The notes under the pieces were generated by a model. It saw only the letters and a list, made by a program, of their open reading frames with translations, made no database searches and was not told the origin of the DNA. A stretch of DNA of 64,000 nucleotides from the NCBI GenBank assembly GCA_045631105.1, contig JAZQTZ010000052.1, forward strand, positions 532 through 64,531. The letters are read 5' to 3'. This stretch comes from Acutalibacteraceae bacterium. GTDB taxonomy: Bacteria; Bacillota; Clostridia; Oscillospirales; Acutalibacteraceae. The number at the start of each line of letters is the position of its first letter. Position 1 is the stretch's first letter. Made by a program: the position numbers and the translations under genes. This document shows, one piece after another, positions 5,543 through 43,383 of the stretch.

Positions 5543-5896
5543 ATGACCGTTAAACGGGGAGAAATTTATTATGCAGACCTGAGTCCCGTCATAGGCTCAG
5601 AACAAGGAGGCACAAGACCTGTTCTGATTGTTCAGAACGATGTCGGCAACAAATTCAGTCCGACGGTTATCGCCGCCGCAATAACAAGCCAACGATTCAA
5701 AACAAGTCTGCCGACACACATAAGAGTCAATGCCGACGGTTGCGGACTTGCCAAAGATTCGATTGTTTTGCTCGAACAGGTACGTACTCTCGATAAAAAA
5801 AGATTGAGAGAAAAAATGGGAATTCTTGATGAAACCGATATGGTGAGAGTGGACAGAGCTTTATCGGTGAGTCTGGGGATAGGTGCAACCGAATAA
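5543..5896 (+). CDS. mazF: PemK/MazF family endoribonuclease (NdoA/EndoA-like)
   Basis: KRGEIYYADLSPVIGSEQGGTRPVLIVQNDVGNKFSPTVIAAAIT...DSIVLLEQVRTLDK, close to B. subtilis NdoA. Confidence 0.95.
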   Translation: MTVKRGEIYYADLSPVIGSEQGGTRPVLIVQNDVGNKFSPTVIAAAITSQRFKTSLPTHIRVNADGCGLAKDSIVLLEQVRTLDKKRLREKMGILDETDMVRVDRALSVSLGIGATE

Positions 5897-8729: not shown

Positions 8730-10334
8730 TTATTCCGTTTGATTGTCAACATTTACGCTTTCCAGAAAACCGTTGAGGCATTCTTCAATATCAGCATTTT
8801 CTGCTTTTTTCATAAGATAGTAACGTTTTGAATATTTGTCTGCTGAAGCGGAAATATAACCGTCATAATCAACGGTCATCACAACAGGTTTTGAAAGAGT
8901 CCAGAAATCCCCCTCGCCCTCAAATGCATAATAAACGGCTGTCAGGTCCCAGCTTTCTCTCATATAAGGAGGCTCTTTTCCGCCGATATAATGCTTATAG
9001 CTGTCATAAACGGGATTGTTTTCTTGCTCGCTTCTAAATCCTGTTTTGATTTTTGAACCGATTTCAAATCCTGAGCAAACAATAACATGCTTGAATTTTT
9101 CAAAAACTGTTTTTGCGGCAGCAGGGTCACACTCAATATTGAATTCTTTACCCTTGGGGAATTTGCCCGCCATCGCAACAATTGAATTAACCTTTTTATT
9201 GAACAAATCGGGTTGTTCATTGAGAATTTCTGCTATGTTTGTGAGAGGTCCGACGGAAATAACAGTTACCGAATCATCCTCTGCTTTTTTCAGCACGGAT
9301 TCATAGAAATCAAGTGCGGATTCAACATGAATAGCGCTGTTTTCATATTTGCAATATTTCTTTGTCACGGGTTTATTGTATTTATCGTTATCTTTGAGAA
9401 TCTCGTGCCCCTTATGTTGACCGATTTTTATGTCTTCATATCCGTAATACTCAGCAATTGCACGGACAGCACCGTTGCCGTAAGGATTCGAGGTGCAGTT
9501 TGCAACGCCGAGGATTTTAACCTCATATTTCTTTGCCAGTTCAAACAAAACAGCCAGCGCACCCGCATCATCGCAGTCGGGTCCGATATCGGTATCAAAA
9601 ATAACATATCGGCGGCTGTCTTTAATGGGTTCATAGGGTGATTTACCGTAGTTATCCTCTGATTTTGACATTTTAATTGCATATCTTATAACCCACACAA
9701 TCAAAGCAACGGGAATAAGAATTGCGGCAACAAGAACAATTTTCTGCATGGGGAAATAATCGTAGATTCCGTCGCCGAGAATCGTGAAAAGAATAACTCT
9801 CGGAAGAATTCCTCCGAGCGAAACAAGGAAATACTGAAGAAATTTCATTCTGACCGCACCGAGAAGAAGGCTGACTATATCAATCGGGAAAACAGGCAGA
9901 ACTCTGATAATAAAAATTGCGGAGAGCTTGTTTTTCTCCTGAAGTGCAAGGATTTTTTCGCCGTATTTGTTCTTTTCGAGCTTGTTTTTTACATATGGTC
10001 CGCCCATAATAATGCCGAAAAGATACGAAACGCTTACTTCAATCATTATTCCGACAGCGTTGATAAGTATTGCCCAATGTGACGGAAAACACATTCCGAC
10101 CGCTATATAAATAAGCGAAGCTGGTAACACAAAAGTTACCGATTTGAGAAGATAAACTCCCCAGATAAGACCGACTGCCATAAAAACATTTGAAGCCGAA
10201 TCAACAAGACCTCTTATATCTATGTTCTGCAATTCATCATATTTCCATATTATCAGGGCAATAATAAAAACCGATACCGTTATTCTTGCCGCAAGACCCA
10301 ATGCATGAGATGAGCGAAGAAATTTTTCCTTCAT
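8730..10334 (-). CDS. Fusion of a DedA/VTT (TVP38) membrane domain and an inosine-uridine nucleoside hydrolase-like domain
   Basis: N-terminal ~220 aa: IIRVLPVFPIDIVSLLLGA..F..YF..SLGGILP (VTT). C-terminal: DTDIGPDCDDAGAL, SVGPLTNIA, EFNIECDP and SWD (IU-NH). Confidence 0.85.
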   Translation of the reverse strand: MKEKFLRSSHALGLAARITVSVFIIALIIWKYDELQNIDIRGLVDSASNVFMAVGLIWGVYLLKSVTFVLPASLIYIAVGMCFPSHWAILINAVGIMIEVSVSYLFGIIMGGPYVKNKLEKNKYGEKILALQEKNKLSAIFIIRVLPVFPIDIVSLLLGAVRMKFLQYFLVSLGGILPRVILFTILGDGIYDYFPMQKIVLVAAILIPVALIVWVIRYAIKMSKSEDNYGKSPYEPIKDSRRYVIFDTDIGPDCDDAGALAVLFELAKKYEVKILGVANCTSNPYGNGAVRAIAEYYGYEDIKIGQHKGHEILKDNDKYNKPVTKKYCKYENSAIHVESALDFYESVLKKAEDDSVTVISVGPLTNIAEILNEQPDLFNKKVNSIVAMAGKFPKGKEFNIECDPAAAKTVFEKFKHVIVCSGFEIGSKIKTGFRSEQENNPVYDSYKHYIGGKEPPYMRESWDLTAVYYAFEGEGDFWTLSKPVVMTVDYDGYISASADKYSKRYYLMKKAENADIEECLNGFLESVNVDNQTE

Positions 10335-21166: not shown

Positions 21167-22420
21167 TCATTCTCTTTTTATTTCTGCACCAATCAGGGAA
21201 AGACTTGTTTCAAAAGCCTCGCATCCCCTGTCAACATGATGAATTTCATCCACAAATGTTTTTCCTTCCGCTCCGAGAGCGGCAACAATCAAGGCGCATC
21301 CTCCGCGCAAATCGCTCGATGAAACATCGGCGGCACAAAGTTTTTCAACACCCTCAACAACAGCTATCCTGCCGTCCTCAACCCTTATATCCGCACCCAT
21401 TTTTATAAGTTCGGGTACGTGTCTGAATCTGTTTTCAAATATTTTTTCGCTTATAATGCTTGTTCCGTTTGCTTTGGTAAGCATTGCCATTATTATTGCC
21501 TGCGAATCCGTCGGAAATCCCGGATACGGCATTGTTCCGAGAGATTTGACTCTCGAAAGTCTTTCGGGAGCTTTTATTATAAGTTCGCTTTTTTTGACGG
21601 ATATTTCGCACCCTGCCGTTTCAAAAACAGGGATAACAGGAACAAGATGATCTCTGCACACGCCGTTGACGGACACTTTTCCGCCTGCCGATGCAACACA
21701 AGCCATAAAAGTTGAAGCAACAATTCTGTCAGGGATAATCGTATGCTCCGTTGAATGCAGCTTTTTGCACGGTTTTATCCTTATAACGCTCTGCCCTGCT
21801 CCGTAAATTTCCGCACCGCATGATTTCAGAAACTCTGCAAGGTCAATGATTTCGGGTTCTCTTGCAGCATTTGTAATTACCATTTCGCCTTTTGCACCCA
21901 TTGATGCAAGCATAATATTTTCCGTTGCGCCTACGCTCGGAAATGCAAGAGTAATATTTTCACTCCGAAGATTATCCGTTGCGCATTCAAGCAAACCGCC
22001 TGTCTCATTAATAAAAACATTCATTTTTCTCAAGGCGGAAAGGTGCAGATCTATTGGACGGAGTCCTATTTCGCATCCTCCTGGTGAGGAAACACAGGCG
22101 GCTCCGAATCTTGCAAGCAATGCACCGAGAAAAACAATCGACGAGCGCATTTCACGCATGAGCTTTCCGGGAATATAAAATCGGTTCGCGCCCGTTGCAT
22201 CAACAATAACAGTATGCCCCTCACGTTTTGTTTTGCATCCGATATATTCAAGTATTTTCAACGCCGCCGACACATCGGTGATATCGGGGCAGTTATGTAT
22301 AACGCTTATTCCGTCAACAATAACGCAAGCGGAAAGAATAGGCAAAGCGCTGTTTTTTGAACCTTGCAAGTCAACTTTTCCGCTGAGTTTTCTTCCGCCG
22401 TTTATAATCAATTTTTCCAT
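21167..22420 (-). CDS. murA: UDP-N-acetylglucosamine 1-carboxyvinyltransferase
   Basis: GSKNSALP, PGGCEIGLRPIDLH, PYPGFPTD and DLRGG motifs. A SigE-like promoter (TCACGTT-N14-AATAAAAT) lies just upstream. Confidence 0.95.
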   Translation of the reverse strand: MEKLIINGGRKLSGKVDLQGSKNSALPILSACVIVDGISVIHNCPDITDVSAALKILEYIGCKTKREGHTVIVDATGANRFYIPGKLMREMRSSIVFLGALLARFGAACVSSPGGCEIGLRPIDLHLSALRKMNVFINETGGLLECATDNLRSENITLAFPSVGATENIMLASMGAKGEMVITNAAREPEIIDLAEFLKSCGAEIYGAGQSVIRIKPCKKLHSTEHTIIPDRIVASTFMACVASAGGKVSVNGVCRDHLVPVIPVFETAGCEISVKKSELIIKAPERLSRVKSLGTMPYPGFPTDSQAIIMAMLTKANGTSIISEKIFENRFRHVPELIKMGADIRVEDGRIAVVEGVEKLCAADVSSSDLRGGCALIVAALGAEGKTFVDEIHHVDRGCEAFETSLSLIGAEIKRE

Positions 22421-22474
22421 TGCCCACACTCCTTGCTATGTCTACATTTTATTCAAGGAATGTGAGAAACGTGA

Positions 22475-23602
22475 TTATTTTACTATTTCGCAGAGAGTGT
22501 CATATATTCTTGCCGTTGCATCAATAACAGCCATATCTCTTGCGCACTTGCCGATTTTTTCAAGCTTTGTTCTGTTTCCGATGAGTTCATTCACCTTTGC
22601 GGTGATTGATTCTGCATTAAGGTCTTTTTCTTCAAGAATAACCGCCGCACCGTTTTCAACGAGAGCCATCGCGTTGTGATACTGGTGATTTTCGGTTACA
22701 TAAGGTGAAGGAATAAGAATCGAAGGTTTGCCGAGCGCCTGAAGTTCACTCAAGGTGCTTGCACCCGAGCGGCCGATAACAAGGTCTGCTGCAGGAAGGC
22801 ACTTCGGAATATCGATATATTCAACAATTCTGATATGAGGATTAGCCGCAAGGTCAACACCTTTTTCAACAAGACCACGCTTGAAATCCTCGCTGTTTTT
22901 GCCCGTTGCATGGAGAAATACGCAATCGTTATCCTTATACTTATTGAGAATAAGACTCATAACCGCATCATTAACGGGTTTTGCGCCGAGACTGCCTCCC
23001 ATTGAAAGAATGAGAGGTTTATCATCGGTAAGACCGAGCTCTGCACGGGCAAAATCTCTGTCGCCCTTAAGGATATCGCCTCTTATGGGAAGACCTGTAA
23101 GAACACAGGGATTTTTTGATTTTATATATTTTTCAGCCTGAACAGCGGTAAGCATAACTCTGTCAACCTTACCTGCAAGAGCTTTGTTTGTCACTCCGGG
23201 GAAGGCATTTTGTTCATGAACAGCAGTAGGAATTCCCATTTTTGCCGCCATGCGCAGAACAGGTCCGCTGACATATCCTCCAAAACCGATTACAAGGTCA
23301 GGCTTGAAATCTTTTATGATTTTCTTTGCCTGCGATGAGGATTTGAGCAGCTTCAGAAGAGTTCCGATATTATGCTTTATTGCTGTGAAAGAAAAGCTGC
23401 GCCAGAAGCCGCTGATTTCAATTGTGCGAAGCTCATATCCCGCTTCGGGAACAAGCCTTGCTTCCATTTTATCTGCAGTTCCGACAAAAACTATTTCTGC
23501 CGAAGGATTTTTTTCTTTTATGTAACCCGCAGTACCGAGAGCAGGATTTATATGACCTCCGGTACCGCCTGTTGCGATAAGAATTCTTTTATTATCAAAC
23601 AT
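22475..23602 (-). CDS. murG: MurG glycosyltransferase
   Basis: GGTGGHINP, HEQN, GGSLGA and HQYHNA motifs. Confidence 0.97.
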   Translation of the reverse strand: MFDNKRILIATGGTGGHINPALGTAGYIKEKNPSAEIVFVGTADKMEARLVPEAGYELRTIEISGFWRSFSFTAIKHNIGTLLKLLKSSSQAKKIIKDFKPDLVIGFGGYVSGPVLRMAAKMGIPTAVHEQNAFPGVTNKALAGKVDRVMLTAVQAEKYIKSKNPCVLTGLPIRGDILKGDRDFARAELGLTDDKPLILSMGGSLGAKPVNDAVMSLILNKYKDNDCVFLHATGKNSEDFKRGLVEKGVDLAANPHIRIVEYIDIPKCLPAADLVIGRSGASTLSELQALGKPSILIPSPYVTENHQYHNAMALVENGAAVILEEKDLNAESITAKVNELIGNRTKLEKIGKCARDMAVIDATARIYDTLCEIVK

Positions 23603-24861
23603 TATTTTGTCTTCCTTTCGCTGTTTCTTGAAACTGCAAGCACCATACCCATTTCGATGAGAAGCATAACAAGAGATGTTCCGCCGTAGCTGAAAAACGG
23701 GAGGCTTATGCCTGTGTTGGGAACGGTGGAAGTAACAACCGCTATATTAAGAGCCGCCTGCAAACCAACCTGAAAGCTTATTCCCATTGCAAGCATTGCT
23801 TCAAATCTGCTTCTTGCACGAAGACCTATTATAAAACCTCTTCCAACAAGAAGAATGAAAAGAAGGATTATAAGAATTGCTCTTAAAAATCCGAGTTCTT
23901 CGCATACAACCGCAAAAACAAAGTCATTCTGAGGTTCGGGGATATACATATGCTTCTGTTTTGAATTTCCGAAACCGAGACCGAAAAGTCCGCCCGAACC
24001 GATGGCATAAAGCGACTGAAGGCTCTGCCATCCCGAGCCTGACATTTCATCTTTTGTCAGTTCTTCTCCCGTGAGAAGCTTGAGCCATATACCGATTCTT
24101 GCACTCGCATAACCTTCAAGAAATTTATCGGCATTAAGAACAAACCATATTCCCACGATAAGAACAAGTGCACCGATTCCGGCATAGAAATACCAGGGTA
24201 TTTTCACTCCGCCGAAATACATTGTTGCAATTCCGATTCCGAAAGTAAGCAAAGTTCCCGAAACGTGGTTTTCTTTATAGATGAGAATACATACAAGACC
24301 GATAATCAGGATATAAGGAGCCATCATCCACGCAGTTTTTTCAACGAGTTTATGATATCTTTCCATGCTGAATGCAATAAACATCACTATTGCAAGCTTT
24401 GCTATTTCCGATGGCTGAAACGTTCCGACAATCGGCACGGCAATCCAGCGTTTAAACTGTTCTTTTCCGGGAATAACCGCAGGATTGATGAGAACATAAA
24501 TAAGCAAAGCCAATGAAACAAGAAAAATAAATGTTGAAGCACCTCTGAAAACATCGGTGTTTATGCGTGAAACAACAAGCATCAGCGTAAGCCCCAATGC
24601 GGCGTACAAGAGCTGATTTTTTACATAAAAATACGGATCAAACTTTGCGTCTGCATCATACCACGCATTGACGTAGCTTGCCGAAAACATCATGATTATG
24701 CCTATTGTAAGAATCGTGATAACAAGGGCTAAAAATGTTATATCCATCGGACCTTTTGAAAACAAATCTTTTATTTTCTTTTTGCCCGAAAAAATATCTC
24801 TCAGGATGTAAAATATTCCGAAATGAGCCAGAATCTCATTTTTGAGATTTACTTTATCCAA
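23602..24861 (-). CDS. ftsW: SEDS family peptidoglycan polymerase FtsW/SpoVE
   Basis: FQPSEIAK, IGSGGLFG, PEPQNDF and LPFFSYGGTS motifs. Confidence 0.93.
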   Translation of the reverse strand: MDKVNLKNEILAHFGIFYILRDIFSGKKKIKDLFSKGPMDITFLALVITILTIGIIMMFSASYVNAWYDADAKFDPYFYVKNQLLYAALGLTLMLVVSRINTDVFRGASTFIFLVSLALLIYVLINPAVIPGKEQFKRWIAVPIVGTFQPSEIAKLAIVMFIAFSMERYHKLVEKTAWMMAPYILIIGLVCILIYKENHVSGTLLTFGIGIATMYFGGVKIPWYFYAGIGALVLIVGIWFVLNADKFLEGYASARIGIWLKLLTGEELTKDEMSGSGWQSLQSLYAIGSGGLFGLGFGNSKQKHMYIPEPQNDFVFAVVCEELGFLRAILIILLFILLVGRGFIIGLRARSRFEAMLAMGISFQVGLQAALNIAVVTSTVPNTGISLPFFSYGGTSLVMLLIEMGMVLAVSRNSERKTK

Positions 24862-24879
24862 AATTCCCTCTCCTCTCTA

Positions 24880-25039
24880 TAAAGTGGCAGAAGTAATCCG
24901 AACCATGTTTTTATCGGATGATTTCCGCCTTTTCTTTGTTAAAATACTCGCAAATCCTGATGCCTTTCAATCCCGAAACGCCGAAAAGCGTTGAAAAGAC
25001 TTGCTTTCAGGCATAGTTTGGATTGCTCACGTCACTCTA
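24880..25039 (-). mobile_element. Degenerate, internally deleted copy of the MITE at 62072-62349
   Basis: The reverse complement shares GAAAGC.AG.CTTTTCA.CGCTTTTCGG.GTTTCG, GAAAGGC.TCAG and GGATTTGCGAGTATTTTAAC with the 62-kb element. Imperfect 24-bp terminal inverted repeats. Confidence 0.75.
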
Positions 25040-26060
25040 ATAATACATATCCTCCGAAACACATAACAGCAACTGCGACAACTCCTCCGATAATATTGAC
25101 CGCAGTAAAGATCAAGGTTATTTTATTATCGCTCCAACCGCAGCATCCGAGATGATGCTGTAAAGGTGCGCTTTTTCTGAAAAGGTTCTTGCCTGTCTTT
25201 TTGTGGTAAGCAACCCTTATGAAATCCGATGAACCGATAACAAAATACGAAACGCCCGACAAAATCAATATAAGCGGACATCCCGTTGCATATGAAATCG
25301 CAACAAGCATTCCTGCGAGAAACATTGTTCCCGTTTTTCCCTCGAGGATTTTTGCGGGATGCTTGTTCCATAAAAGAAATCCGACGCATGAACCTGCAAG
25401 CGCCGCAGACATCGCGGAAAAGCCGAAAAGACCTTTGAAGGCGGCAACCACGCCGAGCGAAACCGCCGCCGTAAAGGTCATGCTGCCGCATAATCCGTCA
25501 ACCCCATCCGTTATATTGACGGCATTAACCGCGGCATAAATCAGTAAGAATCCGATAATCCAGTAAAAAAATCCCGGTTCAACATTTCCGTAAAACGGAA
25601 CAAACATATAGGGCATACCGTTCATCCCCATATAAAGCCCCGTAAGATATGCAAGAATCACGAAAAACTGCATAACCGTTTTCTGCTTTACGGTGAGACC
25701 GATGTTCCTGCTTGTTTTGATTTTATAATAATCATCCGTTAAACCGATAAGAGCAAAAGACAGCGCCATGAAAAGTCCGCTCCAGAATTTTGTGTGCATT
25801 TCACGAGCAATAAGACTTCCCGATGAAACAATGTCACCGCCCGATAATTTATCAGTTGCAACCGCAATAACAACAGCCGATACCGTTCCGATTGCAAGCA
25901 ATATTCCGCCCATTAACGGAGCGGGTTGTTTTTTCTCAAATGCAGGGTATGACCTTCCGAATTCAATCTTTCCGAGCCACGGCACAAGACTGAAACCCAT
26001 TATGAAAGTTACGGCAATACCTGCTATGCCCGAAACGGCAATTATTGCGAGAGGACTCAT
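25032..26060 (-). CDS. mraY: MraY-like phospho-MurNAc-pentapeptide transferase with substituted catalytic motifs
   Basis: dcw position after murF, with P.MGG, GLTDDY.K and NAVNITDGVDGL motifs. FMGD is replaced by LEGK and HHH by QHH. Confidence 0.85.
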   Translation of the reverse strand: MSPLAIIAVSGIAGIAVTFIMGFSLVPWLGKIEFGRSYPAFEKKQPAPLMGGILLAIGTVSAVVIAVATDKLSGGDIVSSGSLIAREMHTKFWSGLFMALSFALIGLTDDYYKIKTSRNIGLTVKQKTVMQFFVILAYLTGLYMGMNGMPYMFVPFYGNVEPGFFYWIIGFLLIYAAVNAVNITDGVDGLCGSMTFTAAVSLGVVAAFKGLFGFSAMSAALAGSCVGFLLWNKHPAKILEGKTGTMFLAGMLVAISYATGCPLILILSGVSYFVIGSSDFIRVAYHKKTGKNLFRKSAPLQHHLGCCGWSDNKITLIFTAVNIIGGVVAVAVMCFGGYVLLE

Positions 26061-27418
26061 TTGTCGAGAGCCTCATACACGGCAAAAATAACATCTTCGA
26101 GCTTCATTCCTCTGCTCGCTTTAAAGAGAACTGCATCGCCTTCTCTGAGATATGAGATAAGCTCATCCGAAAGCTTTTTCTTATCATCAAAACTCTTTAC
26201 GCAGGGAACATTTCCGTCGGCCGCACCCTTTGCAGTCTGCAATGAGCGTTCACCGTAAGTAAACACGGCGTCAACACCGTTTTCAGCAGCTTTTTCGCCG
26301 ACACCGTAATGTGCGGATTCGCTGACTTCACCGAGTTCAAGCATATCTCCGATAACAGCGATTTTTCTCTTTGCATTCATGCTTCCGAGAACAGCAAGAG
26401 CCGCCGCCTGCGAATCGGGACTTGCATTATAACAGTCTTCGATAAAAGTCATTCCGCCTTTTTTATTGATTCTCTGGCGCATACCTGCAGGCACATAATT
26501 TTTCAATGCTTCAAAACCTTCAAGAGGTTCTATACCGAAAAACGAACCTGCAGCAACCGCTGCAAGAGCATTGTAAACATTGTGACGGCCCGGGAAAGGC
26601 AGGCTCACCCTGCCCGAACCGCCATTGTTGAAACCGACAGTCAACTCGGTCTCATCTTCTTTGGAGGTTATTTCAATTGCCTTAAACATTGATTTTTCGT
26701 TATTGATACCGTAATAAGTCACTGGGTGCGTATCCTGACATACGGTGATAAGCATATCGTCATCGGCATTGAGAATAAGCGGAGCATCAGCTTTCATTCC
26801 ATGAAGAATTTCAAGCTTTGCTTTTAATATTCCTTCTCTTGAGCCGAGCTTTTCAATATGCGAAACTCCGATATTACTTATTATCGCAATATCGGGTTTT
26901 ACGGCTTTGGTCATTCTTGAAATTTCCTCAAAGCCGCTCATTCCCATTTCGATAACCGCCGCCTCGTGGCTCTTTTCAAGCCTGAAAAGAGTAAGAGGAA
27001 CGCCGATTTCGTTATTGAGATTGCCCTCGTTTTTGAGAGTGTTATATTTTGAGGACATAACCGCATGGGTCATTTCCTTTGTTGTTGTTTTTCCCACACT
27101 TCCCGTTATACCGATAACAGGAATATTGAAAAGGCTTCTGTAATATCCTGCAAGGTCAAGAAGCGCCTGACGGGTGCTTTCAACAAGAATCTGATTTTCT
27201 CCGAGACCGCAGTCTTTTTCGCAGACAACAGCCTTTGCACCGCTTTCAATCGCTTTTGCGGCAAAATCATGGCCGTCAAAGTTTTCACCCTTAATGGCAA
27301 TAAAAAGACTGCCCTCGGTTATTTTTCTTGTGTCGGTGCATACGCAGTCAAATTTTCCCTCAAGATTTGTTGAGGAACTGACTGCCGCCGCAGCCTCTTT
27401 GAATGTTAAGGGTAACAT
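26057..27418 (-). CDS. murF: UDP-MurNAc-tripeptide-D-Ala-D-Ala ligase
   Basis: GITGSVGKTTTKE, NLNNEIGVP, DCYNASPDS and KASRGM motifs. Confidence 0.97.
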   Translation of the reverse strand: MLPLTFKEAAAAVSSSTNLEGKFDCVCTDTRKITEGSLFIAIKGENFDGHDFAAKAIESGAKAVVCEKDCGLGENQILVESTRQALLDLAGYYRSLFNIPVIGITGSVGKTTTKEMTHAVMSSKYNTLKNEGNLNNEIGVPLTLFRLEKSHEAAVIEMGMSGFEEISRMTKAVKPDIAIISNIGVSHIEKLGSREGILKAKLEILHGMKADAPLILNADDDMLITVCQDTHPVTYYGINNEKSMFKAIEITSKEDETELTVGFNNGGSGRVSLPFPGRHNVYNALAAVAAGSFFGIEPLEGFEALKNYVPAGMRQRINKKGGMTFIEDCYNASPDSQAAALAVLGSMNAKRKIAVIGDMLELGEVSESAHYGVGEKAAENGVDAVFTYGERSLQTAKGAADGNVPCVKSFDDKKKLSDELISYLREGDAVLFKASRGMKLEDVIFAVYEALDK

Positions 27419-27431
27419 TTACTCACGCCTT

Positions 27432-28859
27432 TCAGGAAAGAATCTGAGCAACTACTTCTCGCTCATCAAAATGAATTTTTCCGCTTGCAAGAATCTGATA
27501 AGTTTCCTGACCCTTGCCTGCAAGCACAACGACATCGCCTGCATTAGCCGCATCAAGCGCCTTTTTGATTGCATCCTTGCGGTCGCTGTCAACAATAACT
27601 TTTGCACCGCCTTTGCCGATGCCTGCCGTTATATCTTTGATAATTGTTTCAGGGTCTTCGCTTCTGGGATTATCGGACGTTATAACAACAACATCCGAAA
27701 GTCTTACGGCAATTTCTCCCATAATGGGACGCTTTGTTTTATCTCTGTCACCGCCGCAACCGAAAAGGCAGATAACCTTTCCTTCGGTTATTTCACGGAC
27801 ACAGTTAAGAACATTTTCAAGTCCGTCGGGGGTGTGAGCATAGTCGATAAGAATTGTGTAAGGTACATCGGCAGGAACAACTTCCATTCTGCCCGGCACG
27901 CCGGTGCAAAGCGTAAGCGCATCAAGAACAGCTCTGAAATCCATGCCCATTTCTATAAGGCAGACCGCCGCACCCATCGAGTTATAAACCGAAAACTTAC
28001 CGGGAACCGCAAACTTGACTCTGCCGATGTTTTCGTTGCATACAAGCTCATATTTAACGCCCGATGAAGCTATGCGGATATTCTTTGCGGAATAATCGCA
28101 TTTGTCGTTATTAACAGAGAATGTAACTTTTCTGCAATCAAGACCGTCGGTCATAAATGCCGCGCTTTCATCGTCGATATTCATAACCGCAAGCGATGAA
28201 TTCTCAAAAAGCTTGCGTTTTGCAGCCATATAATTTTCAAAACTGCCGTGATAATCAAGATGGTCCTGAGTAAGATTTGTGAATATTGCAGCTTCGAAAT
28301 GAATGCCGTCAACTCTGTGCTGATCAAGCGCCTGAGAAGAAACCTCCATTACGCAGTATTCGCACTCTGCTTTCACCATTTCATCAAAAAGTCCGAAAAG
28401 CTCATAGCAATCGGGTGTTGTCAAAGCAGCAGGATATTCTTTATCGCCGACGATATTTTTAACCGTACCGATAAGACCTGTCTTGTGACCCATACCGTCA
28501 AGAATCGATTTGAGAATAAAGCACGATGTTGTTTTTCCGTTTGTGCCCGTAACACCGATTATCTTAAGCTTTCTCTCGGGATGACCGTAAAAAGCCGCGC
28601 AGATATAAGCATAAGCGCTTCTTGTGTTTTCAACAAGAATCTGTCTTTCAAGCCCGAGGTCTTTCTGAACAACAACTGCCGCCGCACCCTTTTCAAGTGC
28701 TTCCGCCGCTTTTGTGTGTCCGTCAAAATGTTTTCCCTCGATGCAAATAAAAATGCAGCCTTCGCTTACCTTTGCTGAATTATCGGTTATAAATGTAACC
28801 TCTCTCTCCCCGAAGCTTATGCTTTTCCCCAATTCCGCTGCAATCAAATCAAGCTTCAT
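27432..28859 (-). CDS. murE: UDP-MurNAc-dipeptide-meso-DAP ligase
   Basis: GVTGTNGKTT, TNLTQDHLDYH, DYAHTPD and DNPR (DAP-type) motifs. Confidence 0.97.
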   Translation of the reverse strand: MKLDLIAAELGKSISFGEREVTFITDNSAKVSEGCIFICIEGKHFDGHTKAAEALEKGAAAVVVQKDLGLERQILVENTRSAYAYICAAFYGHPERKLKIIGVTGTNGKTTSCFILKSILDGMGHKTGLIGTVKNIVGDKEYPAALTTPDCYELFGLFDEMVKAECEYCVMEVSSQALDQHRVDGIHFEAAIFTNLTQDHLDYHGSFENYMAAKRKLFENSSLAVMNIDDESAAFMTDGLDCRKVTFSVNNDKCDYSAKNIRIASSGVKYELVCNENIGRVKFAVPGKFSVYNSMGAAVCLIEMGMDFRAVLDALTLCTGVPGRMEVVPADVPYTILIDYAHTPDGLENVLNCVREITEGKVICLFGCGGDRDKTKRPIMGEIAVRLSDVVVITSDNPRSEDPETIIKDITAGIGKGGAKVIVDSDRKDAIKKALDAANAGDVVVLAGKGQETYQILASGKIHFDEREVVAQILS

Positions 28860-28887: not shown

Positions 28888-31185
28888 TTATCCTGCGTAA
28901 TCGTTTACGTCCGTATTGGACTTGAAGTAGACGGTTATTGTTTTACCGTATTCCACCTCTGCTCCGGGTTCTTCGCTCTGGTCATAGGAAACAAGCTCTC
29001 CCGTATTCAAAGCATTACCCGAAATCTTGATATTTAAACCTGCCGCAAGGGCATATTTATTCGCCTGAGAAACCGTCATTTGTCTGAGATCCGGAACGGT
29101 TGCTGTCAGTCTTTCGGCATCGTTTTCCGTATACAGCACAACTATACCGTTTTTGGGCATTGTCTGCTGATATGCAGGCATCTGGGCGGTAACGATTTCG
29201 CCGTTACCGACGGTTTTAACTTCGTAGCCCTCTTGTCTGAGCGCCGCTCTTGCTTCGCCGATTGTTTTTCCGATAAGATTCGGAGCAGTAACATCAAGCG
29301 TTGCAAGTTCTTTTTCGGTATACTGTCTTTCAACATTGAGATATTCAAGTGTTTTTTCGATAACCTGCGCAGCAACGGGCGCACAGTTCTGACCGCCGTT
29401 AATCTGTCCGACAGGTTCGTCAACAAGAATGAGAATCGCAACTTTCGCATCATTTGCAGGCGCAAAACATCCGAACGAAGAAACATATTTGCCCTTATGG
29501 CCGAGTTTCTGGGATGTTCCTGTTTTGCCTGCAACTCTGTATCCCGAAACGAAAGCATTTTTACCTGTACCCTTTGAAACAACAGCTTCCATCATTTCGG
29601 CAACCGTCTGAGCGGTTTTTTCGGAAACAACCTGTCTTCTGACAACAGGTTCGGTTTCTTTTATAACATTTCCGTTTTCGTCAAGCTGTTTTGCGATAAG
29701 ATAGGGTTTCATTAGTTTTCCGCCGTTTGCGATTGCGCTGATAGCGGTAACCATCTGTATGGGTGTAACCTGGAACGACTGTCCGAAAGATGAACTTGAA
29801 AGTTCAACGATACCCATTTCCTCAAGCGGATGGTAGGTTACGCCGGGAACCGGAGTGCTTTCGGCAGGAAGGTCAATTCCTGTTTTTTCGGTAAATCCGA
29901 ATGCTTCGAAATATTCATAAAACTTTTCCGCACCAAGCTTCTGTCCTATTTTGATGAAGAACGGGTTACAGGAATTCATAAGTCCCTGCTGAAAATCCTG
30001 TGTTCCGTGACCGGTTCGTTTATGGCACTTAATAGTCCAGTCAGAAACCTGAATTTTACCCGTACATGTATGCGTTGTTTCGAGATTTGCAACGTTTTCT
30101 TCAAGACATGCCGCTGCAGTAACGATTTTGAAAACCGAACCAGGTTCATAGCTGTCGCTGACTATAAAGTTTCTCCATCTTGAATAAAGAAGTGCGTTGC
30201 GTTCCTTTGTTTTCTCTGCGGAATCTTCAAATGCTTCGAGAGCCTGCGTTTCCGCTTCCGTAAGACTCTGCGGATTGTTAAGGTCATAATTCGGCATGGA
30301 AGCCATCGCAAGAATTGCACCTGTGTTGACATCCATAACTATTCCGTATGCGCCCGCACCCTTTGAGTCGATATATGCCTGTTCAAGAGAATCTTCGAGA
30401 TATCTCTGAATAACCTCATCTATCGTCAGCACAAGTCCTGTGCCTCTGGTTGCATCATAATATGTTTCAAACTCCTGCTTCATAACGTCGCTTCTGCCGT
30501 TCTGAGCAGTAATTATTCTTCCCGGTGTACCCGTAAGAATGCTGTCATATTTAAGTTCAATTCCCGATCTTCCGATATCATCCGTACCTGTAAAACCGAT
30601 AACATTGGATGCAAGAGTACCGTAAGGATAATATCTCTTGACATCGGGATCAAGACCGATTGCGGAGCTGTAATAAATATGCTGTTCCTCGTTTTCGAGC
30701 ACGCCGTCATCATTCTTCTTGAAAATGTTATATTCGTAATAACCGTTCATCAATTCGGCAAGCTTTTCTTTTTCTTCAAACTCTATCTGTCTTTTTATAA
30801 CAAGATAAGCATAACCGCTTTTATCAGCTTTTGTTTTTATATCTTCAAATTCAACACCCGTAATTTCAGAAATCTTACGGCAAAGGTCATTTTTGAATTC
30901 TTCGTTTTCAGTCAAGGATTCTGCATTGGGTTTTATATATAATTTCCAGACGGATGCGCTTTTTGCAAGCACTGTTCCGTTAGCATCATAAATAACGCCT
31001 CGCTCTGCAGATATCTCTGTATCATGAAGCTGATTTCTCTCTGCTTTTTCTTTGTATTGTTCACTGTCTATAAGCTGAATTCTCGCAAGATTAGCGGCAG
31101 TTACACCGAAAATACCGACCGACAATGCAAGAAATACTGTCAGCGCTCTCATGAAAAGTCTTCTTTTGGGAGATATTTTATTCAA
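28888..31185 (-). CDS. spoVD: Class B penicillin-binding protein with PASTA domains (SpoVD/FtsI)
   Basis: EPGSVFK, SCN and KTG motifs plus two C-terminal PASTA domains. TTG start follows GGAAAGGA. Confidence 0.85.
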   Translation of the reverse strand: MNKISPKRRLFMRALTVFLALSVGIFGVTAANLARIQLIDSEQYKEKAERNQLHDTEISAERGVIYDANGTVLAKSASVWKLYIKPNAESLTENEEFKNDLCRKISEITGVEFEDIKTKADKSGYAYLVIKRQIEFEEKEKLAELMNGYYEYNIFKKNDDGVLENEEQHIYYSSAIGLDPDVKRYYPYGTLASNVIGFTGTDDIGRSGIELKYDSILTGTPGRIITAQNGRSDVMKQEFETYYDATRGTGLVLTIDEVIQRYLEDSLEQAYIDSKGAGAYGIVMDVNTGAILAMASMPNYDLNNPQSLTEAETQALEAFEDSAEKTKERNALLYSRWRNFIVSDSYEPGSVFKIVTAAACLEENVANLETTHTCTGKIQVSDWTIKCHKRTGHGTQDFQQGLMNSCNPFFIKIGQKLGAEKFYEYFEAFGFTEKTGIDLPAESTPVPGVTYHPLEEMGIVELSSSSFGQSFQVTPIQMVTAISAIANGGKLMKPYLIAKQLDENGNVIKETEPVVRRQVVSEKTAQTVAEMMEAVVSKGTGKNAFVSGYRVAGKTGTSQKLGHKGKYVSSFGCFAPANDAKVAILILVDEPVGQINGGQNCAPVAAQVIEKTLEYLNVERQYTEKELATLDVTAPNLIGKTIGEARAALRQEGYEVKTVGNGEIVTAQMPAYQQTMPKNGIVVLYTENDAERLTATVPDLRQMTVSQANKYALAAGLNIKISGNALNTGELVSYDQSEEPGAEVEYGKTITVYFKSNTDVNDYAG

Positions 31186-31321
31186 GCGGTTTCTTCCTTT
31201 CCAGAAAAATAAATAACGCTGTCCCAAAAACAGCATGCAAAATTCACAATTCCCGATAAACGATGCATCGGAAACGGTTTCTGCGTCCGTAAAATTGAGA
31301 CAGCCTCGACTATAACTCTTT

Positions 31322-31352
31322 AATGTATATGCCGTTGTTCTGCATGCATATG
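31322..31352 (-). promoter_or_regulatory. SigE-like promoter upstream of spoVD/ftsI
   Basis: Minus strand reads ATA-N17-CATATACAT. Confidence 0.5.
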
Positions 31353-31383
31353 CAATCAAGCAGGCAAAACGCCGCCGTTATTT

Positions 31384-37690: not shown

Positions 37691-40600
37691 TCAGGAAACA
37701 ACTGTTGTGCTGTGTGTCTTCTGGTTAATCTTTGAAACGAATGTGTAGTGGTTAACGATGCCGTCGATATCGTCAGGGTCTACGAAACCGTCGTGGTTAA
37801 CGTCAGCAGCTTCGAACTTTGCAGCGCTGCCGAAATCATCCTGAGTAAGAGCACCGTCGCTTGTCATCAATGCAATTTCAAGGTGGGATACGTCAGTACC
37901 GTCAACTCTTGTATCGCCGTTGATATCACCGTAAACAACTGCGTAATATCTGAATCTTTCTCTGTTTTCAACTGTACCGATGTAATAAGCACCTGTACCA
38001 ACGCCACGGCCTGAACCTGTGATGGTAACCTTAGTACCTGAAGCTTCGTCTTCTCTCATACCAACAACCTGGATAAGATCCATAACTGCGCCAACGCCTT
38101 CTTCAAGGCCGAAGACCTGACCTGTGATACGAGCTGAAGCTGAGTTGGTAATAACTGTTCCAACAAGATTGTTGCCTGCTGTGTCAATGTTTGACTTAAG
38201 GTCGGGATTGGTGAGATAGTTGAGCTTGTAGATAGCCTGATAGAGAGCTGCTGCCATGTCGTCTACTTCAGACTGACCTTCACAGTCGATGGGTGATTGG
38301 CCATCTGCATAAAGTTCCTCGGAGTCGCCGAGAACGGCTACCATGATATCCCACTGACCGTCATCCATGTTGTAACCAACATTTTTGTCATATGAAAGAG
38401 GATCATCGATAATTGCATTTGCAAGTTCCATATAAGCTTCGAGCTGTGTCCAATCTGCAGGACCGGTATAAGGAACAAGTTTATAATAAGCATCAATGAG
38501 ACCGTAGAATGCTTCTGATGCCATTGACTGAGTAAGTTCATCACTTGCAAGAAGCGAGTTTGCAGATGCTTCGATCAATGAAACAGCAAAGTCATAGGCG
38601 ATTCTGAATTTTTCATAGGATGTTGTTGTGTAAACTCTTGTTGTTCTAAGAGCACCTGTTGCATCAACACCGTTGTAATTAAGGTTACGACCGGCTGTAC
38701 CTTTATATGCGCTTGCGAAGGTGTTCTTTGCCCATTCAAGCATTGTTGTGTTAATAGCCTTGGATCTGTTCTTTTCAGCTTCTTCATGACGGTAGGAGAT
38801 AAGGTCCATATGGTCATAGAGAGTTTCTCTGTTGTCATAAAGAGCCTTGATATAATCACAGTATGACTTCTGAATCTGAATATTAACTTCTTCAGCGTAT
38901 GTCATTTCTGCGTCGCCGCCTAATAAGGGATATTTAGCCTTAATAGCGGTGCTTTCAGCTATTGTCATGGGAATTGACGATGCGCCGTTTACAAGAGCGT
39001 TACTTGTGTCGATATAAGCGAATCTGGGACGGTAGAGAGCGTAGTCTACTGCACCATATTCGGAATTCTCAATTGCCTTGTATGTGAGATTCTTTGACAT
39101 GAGCCATGCAGCGATTGTGTTGAGATGACCAACTGAGAGGTCTTCCCACTGATAAGCGCCGTTATAAATGAGGTTGCCATCTGCATCTCTGCCGTCAGGA
39201 ATAATATCAAACTGGAGGCAATCGAAATCAGGTGTTGAGGCAAGAGCGAGTCTTACGATTGTTTCAACTTCTTCTCTTGAGAACTCAACGTCATATCTTT
39301 CGTCAGCGCCCATTTCAAGAGCAATTGCAAGCTGATCATAGTTTGCCTCGTTCATTTCAGCCATATTGATTGTGTTGGTGTAACGAGTCGGACCGCCTGT
39401 TGCGCCCCAACCGCTTTCTGTTGCGCCGAAGTAATAGTCTGTATATGTGTAAGAAGTTGATGCGGTTGTGTAGAAGGGATACATTGAACCGGGGATGCCG
39501 GGTGTACCGTCGGCATAGTTTGTTACTGCGCCGTTTGCATCGGTGATATCGGTTGCTGTAACAATACCGTCATTATTTGTATCAAGCTTTCCGAGGTTAT
39601 AAAGCTGAGATTCAACTGAATGCATGAACCAATCATGATATGCACTTGAAAGATCGTTTTCAGCAAAGCCATGATAGGATGAAACAAAGCTGTCTGCATC
39701 CTTAAGTACATCGCCTGCGCCTGTGTAGAAATAACCTGCTGCGCCTAAATCTTCATAGTTAAGGAATCGGAACTGATCCTGTTCATAGCTTATGAAGGGG
39801 TTAGATGCTGTTCTGTTTGTAATATTTGAGAATCTGAAATCAGTAAATTCTGAATAACTACCGTATTCATCTGATTTAGCTGTCTCTGTTAAAGCGGTTT
39901 CAAGATATGACCATCTTCTCCAGATGTTATAAGCATAAACTGCTTCTTCTGTTGCTGTTGCTTCAGTTACAACAACTTCTTCAAGATATGTGTTTTTGAA
40001 GCTTTCTACAACTGCGTCAGCCTCTGCCTTTGAAGCATATGAACCGTAAACTACGTTGTTTGTTGTGATGATAAGATCGTATGCAGTACCTTCAGCATTT
40101 CTCTTGATTGAGAACTCACCGTTTACGATACCTTCAGCAGTTTCAAGGTCTGTCATTCCTTCAACGATGATAGATGCGTTAACGTTATCTGAAAGCATTG
40201 AAACATAGTTTTCAAGATCTTCAATCTTATAAACCTTCATTGTTGTTTCAAGCATGCCATCTTCCTTGAATGAACGTATATAGTCCATGTTTGCAAGGAG
40301 GGGAAGAGCTGTTGAAAGAAGCTCAAACTTATACTTGTTGAGGAGTTCAAGAAGTCTTGAAAGGAAGGTGGGAAGCGAACCGCTTGTTGAAGCGTTACCG
40401 CTTGAATCACGGCAGGAAAGAAGATCGCCGAGAGTCTGAACGCTTGTGTGACCGCCGCCTGAAAGAACGTTGGTTCTTGTGGGGATAAGTACGCTTTCAC
40501 CGTTGAACACGAGAGCGAGAACACGGTCGATAACTCTCATGATAACTGTAAGAGGAGGCTGGTTAAGTTCGCCGTTTGTATAGTCCGTGTTAACCGAAAG

Positions 40601-43039
40601 AAGGTCAAGGATACCGATAAGGTCGAACTCGATGAGGTTGTTGAGAAGCCAGCCATTAATCATCTTGGCTGAACCATTGATATCGGGAAGCCATGATGTG
40701 GGGATAAGTGAGAAGAGAGTTGCATCGAGAAGGTCATAGATAGCGTCAATCTTCTGAACACCCTGTGATGTATACTGTTCAACGTCATCCCTGAATGTAA
40801 GGGTTGAAACGTCTGAATATACGGTTGAGATAAGGTTGTTGAAGTTTGAAGTCCAAAGACCGGGATATTCGCCTGTTTCACCGTAAACACCGTTACCGTT
40901 TGTATCGTAACCGACAAGAACGGGCATATACTGGTCGAGAGCCCATGTTATGAACTGAGTAACAAATTTCTCGAAGGTTGTGTCTGTGCTGAGAACAGCG
41001 GACTTATTGAGCATAAGAACGTTGTTGAGATAAGCTGCAAGATAGGAGCAGCCGATGTCAAGAGCACCGCTGGGGATTGTAACGTCTTCTGTGCCGATAA
41101 CGTTACCGCTCATATCCTTATGAGAAATTCTCTTGATTGAGGTGTAAGGAATGGGATCGATTTCATTGTTGTTACCGTCAACAACAACGCCGATACCGCC
41201 TGCCTGCTGAAGTTCATGATATGCATCAAGTCTTTCATAGTAGTTATTCTGGGGAAGAGCCTGAGATGCGAGACCTGCCATTGCATAAGCAAGAACAGAG
41301 GGAATATCGTTTGCCCATTCAGGGAAATAGCAACCGTCGATGAAATCGTTGAGAGCCATCTTGATAACAGTCGCATAAACTTTATCTGTTTCAACAACAT
41401 AATTGGGACGGATAAAGTCGGGGTTAGCGTATTTTTCGCCATCCTTATCGGAGATGTTAACGGGCATGTCGTTTGCAACATAGTTATAAGCTGTTGCTTT
41501 TGTTACACCGCCAATTTCTTCATACTGAGTTGCATAAAGGATATCGCCTGTTTCATAGGTGATATATGTCTGGTCAACTGCTGCTTCGTCATCAGCTGCA
41601 ACGAGAGTCTTGGGATTGGTATCTGCATAGTACCAGATAGCTGTGAGCTCGTCGCCTTTGAAACCGAGGTGAGCTGAATCAGCGAAAAGACCAAAGCTGG
41701 GAAGCATGTTAACGAGAAGACGAATAACGTCATTAAGGAGTGACATAAGGTTATCCTGAAGGTGGATTCCCTGATAGTCGATAAGGATGAAGGTGTCGAG
41801 ACCGCCCTTATTGAAGAGCCAGTCAAGCATTGCTTCAATCTTAAGGAGAGGATATGTGTTCTGTTCTTCTGTGTAAACGGGTTCGGGAGCACCGTTCTGA
41901 ACAAGGAGAGATTCAACAAGACCGATAATCATTGTGAACATCTGGTCTGTGAGGATTTCGGGATCGCCGTAAGGCTGATCTTCTGTTATTTCAACGTCAA
42001 GTGCATCGCAAAGAACTTCTGTGAGCATGGGAACTACCATGCCGTCAAGGAGAGCTCTGATAACGTTGTTGATGAGCTGATAGAAGCTCATGGTATGTGC
42101 TTCGGGAACGCCGTCAAGGTCATGGTCAGCCATGATGGAAACGCCTGTGAGAGATGCGCCGCCGGGCTGAGCTGCAAGGGATTCACCAAAGAGAGGTTCG
42201 AAGTTTGCACCGAGAAGTGAGTTTGCACCTTCTTCTACTGTCATGCCTGTACCGGTGATAAGAGCCCAGTCAACAAGCTTCTGAACACCCGCATCAAATG
42301 TTGCCTTATCAACAGCAGTTACTGTGTCGTCAATGAGCATACCGTAAAGCATTGTCATGAGAGCGTTGTCAACGTTGTGAACGGTATCTCCGCCTGTGTA
42401 GCCTGTGAGGTCGGTAAGAAGGTCATCAAAAACGCCCTCGAGGAGTGAACCGTAGTTGAAAGTACCGGAAATGATACCTGCAAGAAGGTTTCTCTGGTTT
42501 GAAATCCAGTCAATGAGCATTTCAAGAACCTTAGCGTCACTTACTTTAGATCTTGTTCTGTCCCAATGGAAGCCGTTCTTGTTAAGACCTTTTTCAGAGT
42601 CAACAAGGTCACCGAGAACAGTAATAACGTCAGCTAAACCAACAATCCAGTTATCATCGAGACAGTTAAGAACAGCGTCAAGGGTTCTGATAACACCGTC
42701 AACGCTTCTCAGGTCGAGAACACCTTTAGCGTTACCTGAACTTTCGAGTTCATCGTCAAGGTCAAGAAGCGCGTTACTTGTGAAAATGTTGATACCGATG
42801 TCAACCATTTCGTTCAACTGGTCACAAGTTATGGTCATGTTTGCATCTGCAAGCATACCGTCAAGCATGTCAAGGAGCCAACCTGCGCCCTGCTCATAGT
42901 TGAGGTAGTACTTAGCACGGGATTTTGACGGGGCAAGGTAGTTATTGGAGTCAGTGAATGCATAAACATTTACGCATGCAGCCGAAAGCACCATAACAAA
43001 AGCCATAAGAACCGCCAAGAGTCTTTTTGCCTTTTTCAT
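37691..43039 (-). CDS. Very large (~1780 aa) acidic secreted protein with C-terminal dockerin domain, S-layer/surface protein candidate
   Basis: Signal peptide MKKAKRLLAVLMAFVMVLSAACVNVYA and a duplicated dockerin Ca-loop (YGDINGDTRVDGTDVS...AADVNHDGFVDPDDI). Confidence 0.8.
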   Translation of the reverse strand: MKKAKRLLAVLMAFVMVLSAACVNVYAFTDSNNYLAPSKSRAKYYLNYEQGAGWLLDMLDGMLADANMTITCDQLNEMVDIGINIFTSNALLDLDDELESSGNAKGVLDLRSVDGVIRTLDAVLNCLDDNWIVGLADVITVLGDLVDSEKGLNKNGFHWDRTRSKVSDAKVLEMLIDWISNQRNLLAGIISGTFNYGSLLEGVFDDLLTDLTGYTGGDTVHNVDNALMTMLYGMLIDDTVTAVDKATFDAGVQKLVDWALITGTGMTVEEGANSLLGANFEPLFGESLAAQPGGASLTGVSIMADHDLDGVPEAHTMSFYQLINNVIRALLDGMVVPMLTEVLCDALDVEITEDQPYGDPEILTDQMFTMIIGLVESLLVQNGAPEPVYTEEQNTYPLLKIEAMLDWLFNKGGLDTFILIDYQGIHLQDNLMSLLNDVIRLLVNMLPSFGLFADSAHLGFKGDELTAIWYYADTNPKTLVAADDEAAVDQTYITYETGDILYATQYEEIGGVTKATAYNYVANDMPVNISDKDGEKYANPDFIRPNYVVETDKVYATVIKMALNDFIDGCYFPEWANDIPSVLAYAMAGLASQALPQNNYYERLDAYHELQQAGGIGVVVDGNNNEIDPIPYTSIKRISHKDMSGNVIGTEDVTIPSGALDIGCSYLAAYLNNVLMLNKSAVLSTDTTFEKFVTQFITWALDQYMPVLVGYDTNGNGVYGETGEYPGLWTSNFNNLISTVYSDVSTLTFRDDVEQYTSQGVQKIDAIYDLLDATLFSLIPTSWLPDINGSAKMINGWLLNNLIEFDLIGILDLLSVNTDYTNGELNQPPLTVIMRVIDRVLALVFNGESVLIPTRTNVLSGGGHTSVQTLGDLLSCRDSSGNASTSGSLPTFLSRLLELLNKYKFELLSTALPLLANMDYIRSFKEDGMLETTMKVYKIEDLENYVSMLSDNVNASIIVEGMTDLETAEGIVNGEFSIKRNAEGTAYDLIITTNNVVYGSYASKAEADAVVESFKNTYLEEVVVTEATATEEAVYAYNIWRRWSYLETALTETAKSDEYGSYSEFTDFRFSNITNRTASNPFISYEQDQFRFLNYEDLGAAGYFYTGAGDVLKDADSFVSSYHGFAENDLSSAYHDWFMHSVESQLYNLGKLDTNNDGIVTATDITDANGAVTNYADGTPGIPGSMYPFYTTASTSYTYTDYYFGATESGWGATGGPTRYTNTINMAEMNEANYDQLAIALEMGADERYDVEFSREEVETIVRLALASTPDFDCLQFDIIPDGRDADGNLIYNGAYQWEDLSVGHLNTIAAWLMSKNLTYKAIENSEYGAVDYALYRPRFAYIDTSNALVNGASSIPMTIAESTAIKAKYPLLGGDAEMTYAEEVNIQIQKSYCDYIKALYDNRETLYDHMDLISYRHEEAEKNRSKAINTTMLEWAKNTFASAYKGTAGRNLNYNGVDATGALRTTRVYTTTSYEKFRIAYDFAVSLIEASANSLLASDELTQSMASEAFYGLIDAYYKLVPYTGPADWTQLEAYMELANAIIDDPLSYDKNVGYNMDDGQWDIMVAVLGDSEELYADGQSPIDCEGQSEVDDMAAALYQAIYKLNYLTNPDLKSNIDTAGNNLVGTVITNSASARITGQVFGLEEGVGAVMDLIQVVGMREDEASGTKVTITGSGRGVGTGAYYIGTVENRERFRYYAVVYGDINGDTRVDGTDVSHLEIALMTSDGALTQDDFGSAAKFEAADVNHDGFVDPDDIDGIVNHYTFVSKINQKTHSTTVVS

Positions 43040-43383
43040 ATTTGCACCTCCATTTTTGATAGGCGTTTTCACGCCCGAAGCCCTTGCAAGAGGCTTCTTG
43101 AAACAGGCATTCTTATAATGCCTTAATTTACAATAGTTACTCTATAAGGGAGTTGTTGCATTCCTCATGCAAAATTTTAAATATTTTTTAAACATTTTAT
43201 GAACAGATTATGAACACGACAGCTTTTTGTTTATGTTTAACAAAGGATTTTAATCTGTTTTGGCGATAATTAACAACTGTTTTTCGAACACATGTTCTGT
43301 CAGAATTTATGAATTCTCATGATCGGTCAGCCATACAATATTTGTTTACTGTTCTGAATTATAACAAAAAAGCAGACAATCCA

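Follow-up and report, generated by a model that had tools for sequence, protein, structure and literature searches.

The dcw cluster of the window

The window, i.e. the whole 64,000-nucleotide stretch of DNA analysed here, carries a dcw cluster with the gene order mraZ-rsmH-ftsL-spoVD-murE-murF-mraY-spoVE/ftsW-murG-murA-ftsQ-ftsZ. On the minus strand, the central part of the cluster comprises the spoVD/ftsI gene for a class B PBP (28888..31359), whose listed open reading frame starts too early and whose true start is likely near 31185-31150, followed by murE (27432..28859), murF (26057..27418), mraY (25032..26060), the spoVE/ftsW gene for a SEDS protein (23602..24861), murG (22475..23602) and a murA gene (21167..22429), referred to here as dcw murA. 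The genes murE, spoVE/ftsW and murG were assigned by family profile scores, and murE, murF, murG and murA of the window are all above their family cut-offs. The stop of murF overlaps the start of mraY.

The gap between mraY and spoVE (24862-25031) has a length of 170 bp, is palindromic and is longer than in most relatives. It matches both ends of a repeated element of which the genome contains about seven other copies, with about 175-190 further bases between the two ends. A sigma-70 scan of this gap gave results at chance level. In genomes G007, G011 and G023 (loci L095, L096 and L103), murF is located outside the dcw cluster and murE abuts mraY; no close murF was found in these three genomes using the murF of the window as the query.

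The earlier note had also reported murD as missing. The gene is indeed absent from the dcw cluster, but it is present on contig C8 of the same genome, with a score above the TIGR01087 cut-off. The dcw loci examined in the genus and in the order-level outgroups G045, G050 and G389 have no room for murD between murF/mraY and ftsW/spoVE. Because these relatives also lack it at this position, its absence from the cluster is ordinary, and murD loss was rejected as part of the case concerning mraY.

Degenerate catalytic motifs in the dcw MraY

The product of the dcw mraY gene (MraY1, protein P0001) is a pseudo-enzyme candidate of 342 amino acids, with an intact frame and the full MraY fold. Its translation reads GLTDDY, NAVNITDGVDGL, PAKILEGK, GSSDFIR, APLQHH and SYPAFEKKQPAPLMGG at the MraY motifs. 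The intact frame, the Asp to Lys and His to Gln replacements and the codon positions, as claimed in the earlier note, were all confirmed by translation and alignment. In the alignment to solved MraYs, Lys242 (codon 25335..25337, minus strand) occupies the position of the FMGD Asp, i.e. the Mg2+-binding Asp (Aquifex D265), and the sequence QHH (25152..25160, minus strand) replaces HHH, with Q301 (codon 25160-25158) at the position of the first His (H324), which is itself required for MraY activity. According to the available text of PMC6606608, D117, D118 and D265 are critical in MraY and D265 is an essential Mg2+ ligand; the HHH motif is described as conserved, and D117 is assigned to C55-P binding, in the accessible part of PMC5039524.

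The comparison with MraY proteins (TIGR00445, PF00953; structures 5jnq, 4j72, 8g01 and 9zno) reveals both descent and departure. MraY1 shares with them the position between murF and spoVE, the 10-TM fold, the DD pair (D109 and D110, equal to Aquifex D117 and D118; 25731..25736, minus strand), which was assigned by alignment to MraY structures and by conservation, the NxxN.TDGxDG motif, and the equivalents of N255 and H326. It differs from them in the replacement of D265 by Lys and of H324 by Gln, in the altered F262 and Q305 equivalents (Leu and Arg, respectively), and in the eroded cytoplasmic loop A (25911..25973, minus strand). The latter is shortened, as the earlier note had described for the first loop, and evolves with an omega (dN/dS) of 0.33 versus 0.006-0.023 in canonical copies. 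The loss of the ExxSVxxQ segment, also proposed there, holds for the E to I and Q to R changes but not for the remainder, the genus norm being EGxSDVxQ. The TIGR00445 score of MraY1 is 148.7 bits, under the curated cut-off of 192.05. The predicted structure has a pLDDT of 86.6, with low confidence confined to loop A and loop E, and its TM-score against MraY structure entries is 0.73-0.82.

MraY1 is therefore an MraY by descent, dcw orthology and fold, and should not be classified among the active MraY enzymes, because only the DD part of the DDD triad (D117, D118, D265) is retained, loop E reads QHH instead of HHH, and the family score is too low. From the loss of the Mg2+-binding Asp, we predict that MraY1 is catalytically dead.

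The replacements are fixed in the clade of the window. Among 39 protein clusters, which are 62-94% identical to MraY1 (mean identity 72%) and 339-346 amino acids long, 36 have K and three have R at position 242, Q301 is invariant and H303 is likewise fixed, with positions 239-240 varying freely next to the fixed K/R242. An assembly error as the source of the MraY1 substitutions was thus ruled out.

A second MraY encoded elsewhere in the genome

The suggestion that a further MraY-family gene exists elsewhere in the genome proved right, and MraY1 is not the only MraY of the cell. MraY2 (P0002) is encoded by a stand-alone gene on another contig (G000:C23:42641-43618; L002:1489-2469), and is a protein of 326 amino acids that is about 26% identical to MraY1 and retains DD, NxxNxxDGxDG, MGD and PLHDH. 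The corresponding motifs are YLDD, NATNCSDGIDG, MMGD and PLHDH. In all 30 aligned MraY2 copies of the genus, YLDD, MMGD or LMGD, and PLHDH are retained, so that the DDD residues and the first loop E His are all present. MraY2 scores 74.6 bits on the mraY model, below the TIGR00445 cut-off, versus 59.1 bits on WecA. Although it shares the superfamily PF00953 with the WecA/TagO-type PNPT transferases, it can be distinguished from them by the higher score on mraY, by PDB matches to MraY chains only, and by being the sole family member beside murF, murE and murG. ESM Atlas look-ups with MraY2 gave no result.

In five of five near-complete relatives (98-100%) without a dcw copy, MraY2 is the sole PF00953 gene, and a murF match was obtained in four of these five, genome G026 giving none. 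It is also the sole TIGR00445 match in 11 of the 12 other Clostridia that carry it. In another genus, g33, exactly one TIGR00445 match was detected in each of 11 genomes, and the one that was aligned (G389) is of the MraY2 type. Near-complete genomes with a degenerate dcw copy have just two PF00953 genes, MraY1 and MraY2, in five of five cases, with no third copy. MraY2 evolves with an omega of 0.07-0.11. Since it is the sole MraY-family gene in near-complete relatives that keep murF where tested, MraY2 likely makes lipid I, as judged from gene content.

MraY2 is a distant, patchily distributed family and not a duplicate of MraY1. It occurs in 12 of 348 other Clostridia and in none of eight other genomes of the family (two genomes were not scored), and it was not found in the plasmids or in the viral contigs searched. 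This patchy distribution is what points to horizontal acquisition. In family f71, MraY2 adjoins an argS-like gene. The MraY2 proteins of G024, G107, G098 and G105 (L042, L382, L383 and L385) are 87-88% identical to that of the window genome, and those of their tree neighbours G004 and G031 only 76-78%. Sequence comparison suggests that mraY2 may also have been transferred within the genus.

Repeated degeneration of the dcw copy within the genus

The genus survey comprised 132 genomes; the assembly of the window genome (G000) is 78% complete. A dcw mraY was detected in 104 genomes, MraY2 in 98 and spoIVA in 96. These counts exclude a partial additional mraY copy in G131 and a canonical one in G017, and two genomes without a match (G142 and G146) were deduced from the tallies. 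Seventy of the dcw copies are canonical, 33 are degenerate, and one (G083) is canonical at the Asp and frameshifted near the C-terminus. The split is bimodal, with changes at 0-2 of 120 near-invariant sites in the canonical copies and at 11-66 in the degenerate ones. The degenerate copies are 338-346 amino acids long in 31 of 33 genomes, the remaining two being cut by a contig end (G029) and by a run of N (G135).

MraY2 is present in 32 of the 33 degenerate genomes, the exception being a genome that is 79% complete. In total, 27 genomes have a dcw copy and no MraY2 hit, and in 26 of them, all except this one, the copy is canonical. On a murE-murF-spoVE-murG tree (FastTree, outgroup G045), the degenerate copies form at least eight separate lineages, each with canonical sisters, and all are located within the MraY2-bearing part of the tree. 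Degeneration of the dcw copy thus occurs only in lineages carrying MraY2. Redundancy alone does not trigger it, because 44 genomes keep MraY2 together with a canonical, strongly constrained MraY1. A metagenome scan gave no close relative. Among 160 loci examined, 154 were canonical, four had the D with HHS, and two belonged to the clade of the window; degeneration was not seen outside the genus in this 160-locus sample.

The Asp242 equivalent is lost in all 33 degenerate genomes, including those of the youngest lineage, in which 11 of the 120 sites have changed. The pattern of replaced and retained residues bears on whether MraY1 could be an altered enzyme, which would perform a metal-independent or different-substrate reaction on C55-P or C55-PP by means of DD, Asp185, Lys242 and His303. 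All full-length degenerate copies keep D110, H303 (33 of 33 genomes), T69, D70 and W167, and most keep D109; moreover, basic pocket residues were gained convergently, with Asp to Lys in two lineages and HHH to HRH in four. These retained and gained residues would fit such a reaction. On the other hand, the Asp has been replaced by K, R, N, E or S depending on the lineage, one lineage has also lost D109 and the TDGxDG motif, and D265 is described as essential for Mg2+ binding in the text available from PMC6606608. We regard an altered enzyme as improbable.

Selection acting on MraY1

In six degenerate clades, the omega of MraY1 is 0.15-0.23, versus 0.05-0.10 in canonical clades, and omega = 1 was rejected in all six degenerate clades tested (2dL 49-765). 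Our own GY94 code agreed with iqtree2 on the one case compared (0.173). The degenerate lineages G086 and G109/G130, with one or two genomes, gave no within-clade omega. No relaxation is seen in murE, murF, spoVE and murG of these degenerate genomes. In the clade of the window, whose 10 genomes span a synonymous tree length of 4.3, no stop was observed, and neutrality would predict about 190.

These data answer the alternative left by the earlier note, in which MraY1 was either decaying or repurposed: plain decay is rejected by the dN/dS of 0.15-0.23 and the lack of stops, and repurposing is favoured. The frames are intact and dN/dS is well under 1, as expected from purifying selection on a protein that has lost an essential catalytic residue. 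A plain pseudogene, an assembly error or a decoy for nucleoside inhibitors of MraY is very improbable and largely refuted already. The 78% completeness of the G000 assembly and the single frameshifted copy among 104 would speak for the first two, but the same substitutions are present in 39 of 39 clade proteins, all of 339-346 amino acids, and omega = 1 is rejected. Erosion of the uridine pocket and of loop E argues against the decoy role, which had been proposed from the sequence of the window. It is the residues of the inhibitor pocket (F262, Q305, the H324/H325 equivalents and loop A) that have been lost or are variable.

The constraint is unevenly distributed over the protein. The cytoplasmic face has an omega of 0.24 in degenerate versus 0.02 in canonical copies, the TM helices 0.17 versus 0.08-0.10, and the outer hairpin 0.084 versus 0.09-0.12. 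Selection was therefore released mainly on the cytoplasmic UDP-MurNAc-pentapeptide face, and the membrane core and the outer face stay constrained. A scaffold role with MurF and MurG, suggested in the earlier note, is accordingly less favoured, the cytoplasmic face being the released one. In the clade of the window, the most constrained stretch consists of TM4, the outer beta-hairpin and the start of TM5 (residues 126-170; 25551..25685, minus strand), with an omega of 0.058. By lineage, the omega of these residues is 0.058 and 0.084 in two and about 0.2 in three, and the best-kept non-cytoplasmic region differs between degenerate lineages. The dimer helices TM1, TM7 and TM10 were not singled out in the pooled omega fit. 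No positive selection was detected on the stem branches, where omega is 0.37 on the cytoplasmic face, as estimated with a coarse confidence grid.

Association with sporulation

The gene spoIVA is present in 30 of the 33 degenerate genomes; spo0A was found in each of the four degenerate genomes tested, but not in the control from the deletion clade, and spoIIE was found in two of two tested. The window genome has spoIVA, gpr and spoVAE, and spo0A was not found over the cut-off in its 78% complete assembly. Among the 28 genomes without a dcw mraY, 25 are also without spoIVA, and the other three have no dcw locus at all in the assembly. In the clade in which the gene is deleted, mraY1 and dcw murA are cleanly gone and murF abuts ftsW in 12 of 12 loci read. 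The loss of mraY1 within the genus corresponds to one clade and one event. The dcw murA gene is also deleted in G035, which has no spoIVA and a canonical mraY1. Because of its deletion both in the deletion clade and in G035, dcw murA looks like a sporulation-linked MurA paralog.

Upstream of spoVD, a sigma-E-like promoter motif, GCATATG-N-CATATA, was found in the window (31323..31353, minus strand; 0 of 100 shuffles) and at 12 other loci, and at no deletion-clade locus. The motif resembles the sigma-E consensus, and it would drive spoVD-murE-murF-mraY1-spoVE-murG-murA in the mother cell. The pattern is not enriched genome-wide (5 hits versus 1-4 in shuffles). A conserved hairpin with the arms GCTGTCTCAA and TTGGGACAGC is located directly after the motif (31215-31305); its counterpart in the deletion clade is smaller and terminator-like, and in some genomes T runs follow it. 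The deletion clade (L074-L083, L433 and L434), which lacks spoIVA, and spo0A and spoIIE where tested, retains the dcw SEDS and class B PBP genes, whereas dcw SEDS genes are usually lost by non-spore formers; these proteins are more diverged, with 35-50% identity to those of the window.

The deletion in the spoIVA-less clade, together with the conserved sigma-E-like promoter, suggests a sporulation role for MraY1. The presence and loss pattern in spore formers holds within the genus as one loss event and fails for g33: none of its 11 genomes has a dcw mraY, and G389, which belongs to another family, has kept spoIVA, spoIIE and dcw murA with mraY cleanly deleted. Sporulation genes can thus persist without a dcw mraY. 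Taken together, we see the chances that MraY1 is tied to sporulation as evenly balanced.

The deletions also bear on the idea that MraY1 is a useless but trapped gene, i.e. one that is translationally coupled in an essential operon, where frameshifts would be polar and misfolding harmful, and that persists until a clean deletion occurs. The observed losses are indeed clean deletions with no remnants, and g33 has lost mraY completely and kept its sporulation genes. Many of the residues common to all degenerate copies are Gly and Pro, and the number of invariant sites lost rises with the age of the lineage (from 11 to 66 of 120). Against this explanation, omega is 0.15-0.23 over long trees and falls to 0.058 on TM4 and the hairpin in the clade of the window, all 39 proteins share the new polar residues K/R242 and Q301 while 239-240 vary freely, and none of the spoIVA-positive genomes of the genus in which the dcw locus is assembled showed a deletion of mraY1. 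We consider a trapped gene unlikely, and MraY1 is quite probably a selected pseudo-enzyme of some kind.

A non-catalytic role in vegetative growth, in which MraY1 would act as a heterodimer partner or feedback regulator of MraY2 or as a carrier-lipid buffer, would turn the link to sporulation into a one-clade coincidence. It would agree with the degeneration being found only where MraY2 is present and with a sporulation correlation that rests on one loss event; in addition, growth requires murE, murF and murG, which belong to the same operon. The deletion clade, g33 and 11 of 12 other Clostridia nevertheless appear to rely on MraY2 alone, and both the co-deletion with dcw murA and the promoter motif argue against a vegetative role, which we judge to be rather unlikely.

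A possible function of MraY1 and its significance

The reading that we prefer, and to which we give an even chance, is that a dead MraY1 has been kept for a non-catalytic job in spore-cortex synthesis while MraY2 makes lipid I. The proposed course of events would start with the second, divergent MraY family outside the cluster, in whose carriers alone the dcw copy degenerates. MraY2 would supply lipid I, as suggested by gene content, and constraint would have been released on the substrate face of MraY1, with the membrane core and the outer face still held. MraY1 would then be made together with SpoVD, SpoVE and MurG from the sigma-E-like promoter. More speculatively, it might serve as a membrane partner that holds a carrier lipid (C55-P or flipped lipid II) at the cortex machinery by means of the retained dimer cavity, the outer hairpin and the DD/Lys/His pocket, with Lys242 in place of the lost Mg2+; alternatively, within the same cortex-related reading, it might steady the SpoVD-SpoVE-MurG assembly. 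Both the outer dimer cavity and the D117 equivalent survive in MraY1, and a lipid II site in the outer dimer interface or cavity of MraY is proposed in the accessible text of PMC10914600. A complex prediction of MraY1 with SpoVE gave a score of 0.00 and the verdict 'no answer', and was not counted as evidence.

A similar case is that of C. difficile, in which the dcw genes spoVD and spoVE are sporulation-specific and were seemingly freed from a growth role, as far as described in the available part of PMC10693644. There, SpoVD and SpoVE stay active enzymes or regulators, whereas the catalysis of MraY1 is predicted to be lost and a foreign-type paralog would cover for it. According to the text at hand from PMC12548448, mraY belongs to the essential set in C. 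difficile. The recurrent MraY pseudo-enzyme candidate with a substitute enzyme is real. The combination of lost catalytic residues, retained fold and purifying selection, and a Lys in the metal site is known from pseudo-enzymes such as pseudokinases, from which MraY1 differs in that its degeneration arose repeatedly within one genus. No MraY/PNPT pseudo-enzyme and no such two-MraY case was found in the literature searched (mostly open-access main texts), and none is described in the available portions of PMC8136486, PMC6878958, PMC12548448 and PMC7438776; MraY copy numbers may be given in the supplements of PMC10693644 and PMC8136486.

The MraY2 family, which escapes the standard mraY model, provides the sole MraY of several Clostridia lineages, and its pocket (HDH or HDE for HHH, and a different loop A) is not characterised in the literature searched. 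MraY, which serves as an antibiotic target, is essential and occurs almost universally as a single copy. Because catalysis cannot be removed, it is difficult to test whether MraY also has a structural or lipid-handling role, and the genus offers natural separation-of-function alleles in at least eight lineages, with active-type sisters as controls. A broader reading, which we offer as possible though tentative, is that MraY hides a second, non-catalytic spore-wall function wherever the enzyme is essential, that the foreign-type MraY2 uncoupled both jobs, and that at least eight lineages made the dcw copy a dedicated cortex subunit that holds the carrier lipid or acts as a scaffold. If this is true, MraY1 would represent the first MraY/PNPT pseudo-enzyme family.

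Other features of the window

A MazF/PemK-family toxin gene is located at 5543-5896, with no adjacent antitoxin open reading frame among those of at least 100 amino acids. At 8730-10334, a single open reading frame encodes a VTT/DedA membrane domain and a nucleoside hydrolase domain, which may represent a genuine fusion or two genes read through as one. The region 37691-43072 encodes a 1793-amino-acid protein whose sole recognised domain is a C-terminal dockerin-type domain.
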